Notes under the pieces: generated by a model
Seen by the model: only the letters and a program-made list of their open reading frames with translations
The model's database searches: none
Told to the model about the DNA's origin: nothing
Source of the DNA: a virus
Lineage: Duplodnaviria > Caudoviricetes
IMG/VR virus record: IMGVR_UViG_3300022074_005559
Direction: 5' to 3' (one strand)
DNA length: 64,000 nt
Shown here: in pieces, positions 7,126 through 8,246 of the stretch
Layout: every line of letters begins with the position of its first letter
Numbering within the stretch: the stretch's first letter is position 1
Translations under genes and position numbers: made by a program

Positions 7126-7362
7126 CTAAAGTATAACTGTTTTAGCTGATTTACTAAGTTCTACGTTATCATCAACTACTTTGTTGAAGTAAGCATAATC
7201 ATTACTTGGCATATCAAGTAGTTCTGACATAGAAACTCCTCCTCTCATATACCATGCGATCTTTGCCATTGTCTGTTTGATTTCAGCAACGGTCTTATCA
7301 AATCCTTTTAAGTACCCCTCAATCTCAGGATTGGTTAATGCTAAGAGGCGAAGGCGAAAAAA
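7126..7362 (-). CDS. gp51-like baseplate hub assembly ORF; probably expressed as a -1 frameshift extension of the upstream gene (otherwise a 47-aa ORF from ATG 7269)
   Basis: Hand-translated -1 frame: FFRLRLLALTNPEIEGYLKGFDKTVAEIKQTMAKIAWYMRGGVSMSELLDMPSNDYAYFNKVVDDNVELSKSAKTVIL*. It is open from the slippery site, and the first ATG has no SD. Confidence 0.65.
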   Translation of the reverse strand, partial: FFRLRLLALTNPEIEGYLKGFDKTVAEIKQTMAKIAWYMRGGVSMSELLDMPSNDYAYFNKVVDDNVELSKSAKTVIL

Positions 7363-8246
7363 TGCGCTTGGTCAAATGTAAATGGCGTTGAGTATTCGTG
7401 TTTACATTCATCACATGTAGTTGTAACAGTTTTTTCCGGAATGCCTTTGTTTACACTTTCTAGGTGTTTGGTCAGTGTATCATAGAACTGGCGTTCACTG
7501 TTTTTTACAAAGTCATTGATGTGATCTGGATTATCTACTGTAGTGCCGTCTGGTGTAACGATTTGTCTTATACATCCTGAAATGTTTGCTACAGTGTAGT
7601 TAGTCATTGCTGTAAAGATTTCTGCGAATCTATGTTGTTTTTCTTCTGCACTCAAAGTACTGTCATTGACCATCATAACCAATCTGTTTTGTTCAAACTG
7701 TTCTAGATTAGAATGATTAAGTGTTTGGTAGTTCATAGGTTGTAAGTAAACCTGCATGCCTTTGTAATCAAATGGCGTGTTATACAAGTCCATGTTTACC
7801 TTAAGATCCATAAACTGTCTAAGGTCAATCTCATAGTTGTCTGTGTTTTCACACTTAGGACATGTACTGGTGTATTCCATGCCTTCACCATAACTTGCAA
7901 TGCGTATAGCAATCAATACAGTGTCTAAATCTACAATAGGCATATCCCATGCATTTTTTATGTTAGGTACACAACTGTGAATGACGTCAACTACACCTTG
8001 CCCGTTCATAAGTGCATCTGGTGTATTCACTGTTATTTCATCTCTGGTGCTCATAGGCAGAATTGGCAGTTCGCCACTTATAGGCATTTCTACTGACCCT
8101 AGTGAATAGTATCTTCCTTGGCTAGGTAGTTGCACATACACAGCAGGTTGCCGCATGTATTGCTGTAAAGGATTAGACTGATGCTGATTTTGCATAGCTG
8201 AAAGTTGTTCAGGATTCATTGAAAAGTTCTCGGGTACATCGACCAT
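7341..8246 (-). CDS. Baseplate hub assembly chaperone, gp26/gp51-like
   Basis: VQLPSQGRYY...LPMSTRDEI...LMNGQGVVDVIHSCVP, two CxxC pairs (CPKC, CDEC), and the ending HFFAFAS; GGAG SD. Confidence 0.75.
   Translation of the reverse strand: MVDVPENFSMNPEQLSAMQNQHQSNPLQQYMRQPAVYVQLPSQGRYYSLGSVEMPISGELPILPMSTRDEITVNTPDALMNGQGVVDVIHSCVPNIKNAWDMPIVDLDTVLIAIRIASYGEGMEYTSTCPKCENTDNYEIDLRQFMDLKVNMDLYNTPFDYKGMQVYLQPMNYQTLNHSNLEQFEQNRLVMMVNDSTLSAEEKQHRFAEIFTAMTNYTVANISGCIRQIVTPDGTTVDNPDHINDFVKNSERQFYDTLTKHLESVNKGIPEKTVTTTCDECKHEYSTPFTFDQAHFFAFAS

Follow-up and report, generated by a model that had tools for sequence, protein, structure and literature searches.

A probable programmed −1 ribosomal frameshift joins a gp26-like baseplate-hub assembly protein to a gp51-type tail in T4-related phages

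A conserved −1 frameshift in tail-chaperone genes is textbook knowledge for lambda-, P2- and Mu-like phages. To our knowledge, no such frameshift has been reported for T4-like phages, and the roles of the T4 proteins gp26 and gp51 have long been obscure. The subject of this work is a gp26-like gene in a 64,000-nucleotide (nt) stretch of viral DNA (IMG/VR record IMGVR_UViG_3300022074_005559; Duplodnaviria, Caudoviricetes), which was analysed whole and is called the window. Comparative sequence analysis indicates that this gene very probably uses a programmed −1 ribosomal frameshift to generate a short and a long product. Recoding of this kind is known, and its occurrence in the gp26/gp51 family appears to have been previously unrecognised: no published report of a frameshift in gp26/gp51-type genes was found in open-access full text, including a 2016 recoding review.

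The closest described system by expression logic is that of lambda gpG and gpGT, in which a −1 slip is conserved in tail assembly chaperone genes (Levin et al. 1993; Xu, Hendrix and Duda 2004; summarised in PMC5009743). The G:GT ratio of ~30:1 is crucial, and both G and GT are missing from the mature virion (PMC5009743). The closest by sequence is the gp26/gp51 pair of T4, where both proteins are tabled as hub assembly chaperones and gp51 is not in the final particle (Leiman et al. 2010, PMC3004832, Table 2). T4 gp26 (208 amino acids, aa) and gp51 (249 aa) each match the Pfam family PF12322 over their full length (E 8.8e-64, 215.6 bits and E 3.9e-52, 177.5 bits, respectively). gp51 has ~48 additional C-terminal residues, which correspond to phrog_150 positions 235–280 and to phrog_634 'baseplate hub assembly catalyst'; this C-terminal tail also appears as PF28602 in precomputed matches. 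T4 gp26 ends in ...EFFELL with no tail, and its FF pair is encoded by the non-slippery codons TTC TTT.

A third relevant system is found in cyanophages. The gp26 gene of Synechococcus phage S-PM2 ends CAG TCT TTT TTC GCA TAA, and the 57-aa open reading frame (ORF) annotated as 'gp51 baseplate hub assembly catalyst' is the −1 continuation of gp26 (p207/p208; phrog_634). The pair is annotated as two genes, and slippage is not mentioned.

The gp26-like gene of the window lies on the minus strand, and its elements were read from the sequence, its translation and profile matches as follows.

7341..8246, minus strand: gp26-like baseplate-hub assembly gene with a 0-frame product of 301 aa (P0001), from ORF, translation, PF12322 and phrog_150
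7356..7362, minus strand: slippery heptamer T_TTT_TTC in the 0-frame codons CAT TTT TTC, read directly
7341..7343, minus strand: 0-frame stop TAG, four codons past the heptamer, read directly
7126..7356, minus strand: predicted −1 extension of 76 codons plus stop (P0002), a gp51-type helical tail, from open frame and alignment

The ORF runs from 8246 to 7341, and its 301-aa product contains two CxxC pairs (CPKC and CDEC). It matches PF12322 T4_baseplate with E 4.5e-17 and 62.9 bits (curated cut-off 24.5 bits) over profile positions 42–218 of 219, and phrog_150 'baseplate hub' with E 1.7e-18. The gene ends ...CAA GCG CAT TTT TTC GCC TTC GCC TCT TAG, and the heptamer at 7362–7356 sits in X_XXY_YYZ phase, the phase needed for tandem tRNA slippage. 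Counted from C7356, the −1 frame has 76 open codons, or 78 with both Phe codons included, and closes at TAG 7128–7126. The predicted trans-frame product therefore has 373 aa, of which 297 are shared and 76 are new, and its tryptic junction peptide would be HEYSTPFTFDQAHFFR. The earliest ATG in this frame is at 7269, codon 30 of the extension; neither ATG, GTG nor TTG precedes it in the window's extension, and no GGAG-like or Shine–Dalgarno motif was seen upstream of it. An earlier reading made from the sequence only had already given the heptamer at 7362–7356, the products of 301 and 373 aa, the ATG at 7269, the 78 open codons and the lack of an earlier start codon or of a Shine–Dalgarno motif at 7269, and all of these details were correct.

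It is proposed that ribosomes would arrive at CAU UUU UUC with tRNA-Phe in both the P and A sites, and that a fraction would slip one base back and re-pair on UUU UUU. Slipped ribosomes would then read CGC (Arg) and 75 further codons, and so make a long form of 373 aa that ends in a helical gp51-type tail. The remaining ribosomes would terminate four codons on, producing the 301-aa short form. Heptamers made up wholly of pyrimidines, with UUY in the A site, have been described as prone to shifting in E. coli (PMC4066793). The short form would be the counterpart of T4 gp26 and the long form that of T4 gp51. A single gene would supply both proteins in a ratio set by the slip efficiency; by analogy with T4 gp26/gp51 and lambda G/GT, the stoichiometry between these chaperone forms would be determined by the slip. 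The central claim of the sequence-only reading, a programmed −1 slip that fuses the gp26-like product to a tail with no start codon of its own, was supported by every comparative test which that reading had proposed.

Conservation of the signal was followed in a clade set of 86 loci with protein identities of 25–100%, comprising 80 IMG/VR loci (37–100% identity), the window and five cultured jumbo phages: Sinorhizobium phage Phosso, Agrobacterium phage Atu_ph07, Pseudomonas phage PA5oct, Klebsiella phage RaK2 and E. coli phage PBECO4. No close relative of the window was found in a DNA search of a phage collection. TTTTTTC occurs in the same phase in 85 of the 86 loci, including all five cultured phages. 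The sole exception, L045 (IMG/VR 3300028383_000118; L045:3837-4067), has TTTTTCC; three bases upstream of it lies A_AAT_TTT, a different canonical heptamer that gives access to the same −1 frame. The variant is either a natural compensatory change or a base-call error. The 0-frame stop follows the heptamer at 3 nt in 39 loci and at 12 nt in 41. In the 83 loci that are not cut by a contig end, the −1 frame stays open for 71–77 codons to its stop (exactly 76 codons in 77 of them), and the +1 frame shuts after 1–29 codons. This arrangement of frames is far beyond chance. The slip is annotated in none of the five cultured-phage records, in which the tail is either a separate 'hypothetical protein' or unannotated.

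The wider family shows the same pattern. A large protein collection holds 4083 homologs of the gp26-like protein; among the 120 listed, 119 are 287–318 aa long and one is 248 aa. This conserved short-form length indicates that the 0-frame stop is conserved and excludes a sequencing indel. All 57 unique S-PM2-like IMG/VR loci carry TTTTTTC followed by a stop one codon on and a −1 ORF of 59–66 codons. The signal and its logic are identical to those of the window, although the cyanophage body (238 aa) is shorter and the tail has 59–66 aa.

Codon choice further distinguishes the slip site from the remainder of the gene. In 76/76 unique genes its two Phe codons are TTT-TTC; of the 41 FF pairs at other positions in these genes, 10 are. 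All 76 also have T as the last base of the codon before the pair, where synonymous usage would predict 27–64%. Judged by these counts, selection at the slip site acts on the nucleotides, beyond the amino-acid requirement.

The same 373-aa protein could in principle be encoded by a subset of mRNAs if RNA polymerase inserted one extra U at the T6 run, but such transcriptional slippage is improbable here. Alternative products are known to arise by polymerase slippage (review PMC5009743); one added U would yield exactly the same product (H-F-F-R-L...), and conservation of the run and the tail is also compatible with it. However, the exact X_XXY_YYZ phase, the fixed C and the T-ending prior codon are needed for tandem tRNA re-pairing and not for stuttering, and L045 swaps the run for A_AAT_TTT, which has five T only. 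Polymerase stuttering also typically takes a run of about nine A/T or longer, and T6 is short by comparison.

Programmed ribosomal slippage also predicts that the −1 frame encodes protein from its first codon, and the tail alignments agree. The base immediately after the heptamer is G in 75 of 76 unique genes, which makes the opening −1 codon an invariant Arg (CGN). The third position of this codon varies freely, so that the 0-frame residue at this point ranges over A, E, G, V and D. Across 54 aligned tails, residues R1, L5, W35 and R38 are invariant and the alignment is gap-free, with the consensus RxRLL..EI, then WYMRGG, then ENLETTKK. Conservation thus begins with the invariant Arg at codon 1, overlapping the 0-frame coding region. 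Substitution rates in the −1 frame rank codon position 3 > 1 > 2, and this ranking holds in codons 5–31, before the window's ATG; by this measure, the tail is under purifying selection. The sequence-only reading had named the upstream −1 codons and stops ahead of the ATG as points to check in homologs: these codons form conserved protein sequence, and no stop lies between the slip site and the ATG.

Fused forms of this protein also occur naturally. A tail-profile search of 1.84 billion representative proteins returned 514 matches, mostly short ORF calls with arbitrary starts; 20 of the 514 are in-frame long forms of 319–351 aa with the junction ...F-R-x-x-L/I.... The window's tail alone has no Pfam or PHROG match. 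One natural long form (P0261) was modelled with AlphaFold from 20 sequences, giving a mean predicted local distance difference test score (pLDDT) of 90.9 and a predicted template modelling score (pTM) of 0.86. The tail is predicted to form helices between residues 256 and 331, at a confidence equal to that of the body. The model's matches in BFVD carry the names baseplate hub subunit, assembly catalyst or chaperone. Foldseek against the PDB returned nothing at E <= 0.001, and the VIA wide structure search returned generic helical hairpins only (Z <= 8.2).

It may be argued that the tail is instead a separate small protein, 'gp51', made by internal initiation (at ATG 7269 in the window) or by termination-reinitiation past the gp26 stop. 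Databases hold many ORF calls of 44–98 aa for the tail, PBECO4 and Phosso annotate it as its own ORF, and S-PM2 and some of its relatives have an ATG four codons past the slip site. However, the start codon is not conserved: across loci, the position of the earliest ATG ranges over codons 2–48, or there is no ATG, and the annotated 'gp51' ATG is likewise not conserved, and often missing, among the 57 S-PM2-like loci. Upstream of the heptamer, the −1 frame has no start codon in 58 of 66 unique loci. The window's ATG has no Shine–Dalgarno motif and comes after 29 conserved codons, and the invariant Arg at codon 1 lies within the 0-frame coding region. The natural in-frame fusions and a long-form model in which the tail is as confident as the body also oppose a separate protein. 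As there is no conserved start and conservation runs from codon 1, separate initiation cannot explain the pattern; this reading has only a slight chance of being correct, and on the alignments, the slip site must be where translation of the tail starts. A third explanation would be an indel introduced into the T run by sequencing, or a gene in decay whose tail is no longer expressed. An error-prone homopolymer in a metagenomic window invites this suspicion, but it has next to no chance of being correct and is excluded on comparative sequence data: independently assembled sequences and finished cultured-phage genomes show the same arrangement, in 86 clade and 57 cyanophage loci, short-form length is kept in the homologs and the tail is under purifying selection.

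The predicted frameshift product can be connected to T4 gp51 through the cyanophages. Profile–profile comparison gave the following colinear matches.

Cyanophage tail against the T4 gp51 family: probability 96.5%, E 1e-9, on gp51 residues 210–246
Cyanophage fusion against the T4 gp51 family: probability 98.4%, E 5.7e-15, residues 23–284 on 15–246
Window-clade long forms against the cyanophage fusion: probability 97.1%, E 5.5e-11, residues 60–364 on 34–288, spanning the slip site

The colinear relation of the window clade to the cyanophage fusion, and of that fusion to gp51, justifies the label 'gp51-like' that the sequence-only reading had given to the extension: the S-PM2 'gp51' ORF is exactly such a −1 tail, and profiles link it to the T4 gp51 tail. 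The T4 link is seen solely by local profile–profile comparison and via the cyanophage intermediates. A hidden Markov model (HMM) of the fusion protein gave noise-level scores on T4 gp26 and gp51. A global hhalign alignment to the T4 proteins placed them in the wrong register and was discarded.

The window therefore resembles T4 in several respects. Its gene belongs to the same family, PF12322; its short form ends at the ...FF motif of gp26; and the helical tail of its predicted long form is colinear with gp51 residues ~200–247. Unlike T4, which has two divergently transcribed genes and encodes FF as TTC TTT, the window has one gene and a slip site. Its body is also ~90 aa longer, and similarity to the T4 proteins is below HMM-to-sequence detection.

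Comparison with lambda G/GT is of a different kind. As in lambda, a tail-assembly gene would yield a short and a C-terminally extended form through a −1 slip close to its 3′ end, and the arrangement is kept across very divergent phages. T4 gp51 is absent from the final particle, as G and GT are from the virion. Unlike the lambda-type gene, which is directly upstream of the tape measure gene and co-oriented with it, the window gene is divergent from its putative tape measure gene. By T4 genetics, the gp26/gp51 type acts in baseplate-hub assembly, which also differs from lambda G/GT. Pfam gave no relation between the window protein and the lambda G/T families, PF12322 being the sole match. The description 'G/GT-like' in the sequence-only reading therefore applies to the logic of expression and does not extend to homology, as no relation of sequence or fold was found.

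A short and a long PF12322 form appear to be supplied through three gene layouts. T4 has two PF12322 genes, short gp26 and long gp51, arranged as a divergent pair. Contig L087 (Logan SRR5080639, L087:820-2744) has a tandem pair, in which a short 294-aa PF12322 gene is directly followed by a long 346-aa paralog; the arrangement in contig L088 looks like that in L087. The third layout, a single gene with a slip site, is that of the window and most relatives. The complete heptamer-bearing genomes of S-PM2, Phosso, Atu_ph07, PA5oct and RaK2 have one PF12322 gene each, and one PF12322 gene is present within the 64-kb window. The short paralog of L087 has no CxxC motifs and ends TCT TTT TTC AAT GAC TAA, with the −1 frame closed at once; its TTT TTC may be the relic of a former slip site.

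These layouts permit a joint reading, which is tentative and on balance doubtful. In it, gp26/gp51 would be the T4-superfamily counterpart of G/GT, and the single-gene, ratio-setting slip found in cyanophages, in jumbo phages of the RaK2/PA5oct/Atu_ph07 type and in marine relatives would be ancestral. The two-gene layouts of T4 and L087 would be later duplications that replaced the slip. If this were true, the unclear 'catalytic' role of gp51 would be explained by a long form that tethers hub or tube components to the tape measure via its helical tail. The slip itself, if real, would have consequences apart from this reading. T4 gp26 and gp51 would be the short and long forms of one ancestral product, and a testable model of hub assembly would follow, in which the short-to-long ratio matters. 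The slip would also correct the annotation of thousands of phage genomes, in which 'gp51' or small hypothetical ORFs would be the tail of a trans-frame protein, and the deeply conserved recoding sites would gain one shared by marine cyanophages, which are ecologically dominant, and by jumbo phages under consideration for therapy.

Several points weigh against a programmed ribosomal frameshift in this gene. The evidence is at the level of sequence throughout. It establishes the signal and its conservation, that the tail is coding, and the homology to gp26/gp51; the ribosomal nature of the slip, its efficiency and the chaperone role of the products are what we infer. The sequences compared are related and are not independent samples. 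The short paralog of L087 shows that TCT TTT TTC can exist without an extension, and a second PF12322 paralog may lie beyond the 64 kb of the window. Compared directly, the window clade matches T4 gp51 at no more than moderate strength (E 6e-5 with the whole protein, 0.04 with just the tail), in an unchanged register. Downstream RNA structure also gives little help. The stimulatory stem proposed in the sequence-only reading does exist, but is no more stable than expected by chance.

7316..7354, minus strand: candidate downstream hairpin, −11.9 kcal/mol, with no statistical support in the window

Against dinucleotide shuffles, this hairpin (7354–7316) has a z of −0.29, and 78 of 200 shuffles fold equally well. 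RNAalifold on 57 ungapped downstream regions gave no consensus fold, and hence no family-wide stimulator. As the window hairpin is at chance level and no consensus fold was obtained, no stimulator is claimed. Strong hairpins 5–6 nt past the heptamer occur in some lineages only (z −2.6 to −6.7). The nearby 0-frame stop is the only other feature common to the family, and stimulation of the slip by this stop is speculation.

By eye, many relatives (L012, L020, L040, L055, L056, L060, L076, L077 and others) have GCCTCC 6–7 nt past the heptamer and GGAGGC ~47 nt further, a pair that spans about 13 to 72 nt after the heptamer. The two arms could form a long-range stem. Both lie in conserved codons, so coding constraint may account for the pairing.

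As a whole, the window represents the structural module of a large, uncultured marine myophage related to T4, and encodes a T4-type portal, a major head protein, a large terminase and a tail sheath. At 1075 aa the sheath (42528–45755, plus strand; phrog_10581, E 3.6e-205) is of unusual length, like those of RaK2-type jumbo phages, and this length fits a large-genome myophage. The following features flank the gp26-like gene and its extension.

8292..8299, minus strand: T4-late-promoter-like TATAAATA, 46 nt upstream of the gp26-like ATG
8256–8253, minus strand: GGAG upstream of the gp26-like gene
8269–8276, plus strand: TATAAATA of the divergent neighbour
8326..10218, plus strand: divergent 630-aa gene with a Gly/Ala-rich hydrophobic stretch, a possible tape measure gene, unconfirmed
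7106..7125, minus strand: terminator-like hairpin with an 8-bp stem, 4 G-C pairs and a T-rich tail, abutting the stop of the extension

The 79 bp that separate the gp26-like gene from its divergent neighbour contain these two TATAAATA boxes back to back, a pair reminiscent of the divergent late promoters that lie between genes 26 and 51 of T4. The count of TATAAATA over the whole window (4) equals the chance expectation, so that the pairing alone is notable.

The sequence-only reading had described the neighbour as tape-measure-like, adjacent and divergent. Its position and orientation are as described; its identity as a tape measure is unverified. The 630-aa protein has no Pfam or PHROG match, even at E 1, and BLAST returned close marine relatives only. 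In RaK2, the corresponding protein is recorded as a virion structural protein, with the remark 'similar to tail tape measure'. The label is thus a possible one, based on composition and on the RaK2 annotation note, and could not be confirmed. The gene apparently starts at a TTG 8 nt past GGAGG (window 8306–8328, plus strand). The spacer between GGAGG and this TTG also reads TTTTTTC, which is probably a coincidence.

On the other side of the frameshift unit, a SegE-type GIY-YIG homing endonuclease gene (6309–6731, plus strand; PF19835, E 5e-37) is convergent on its end. The ~390 nt between the two contain small ORFs only.

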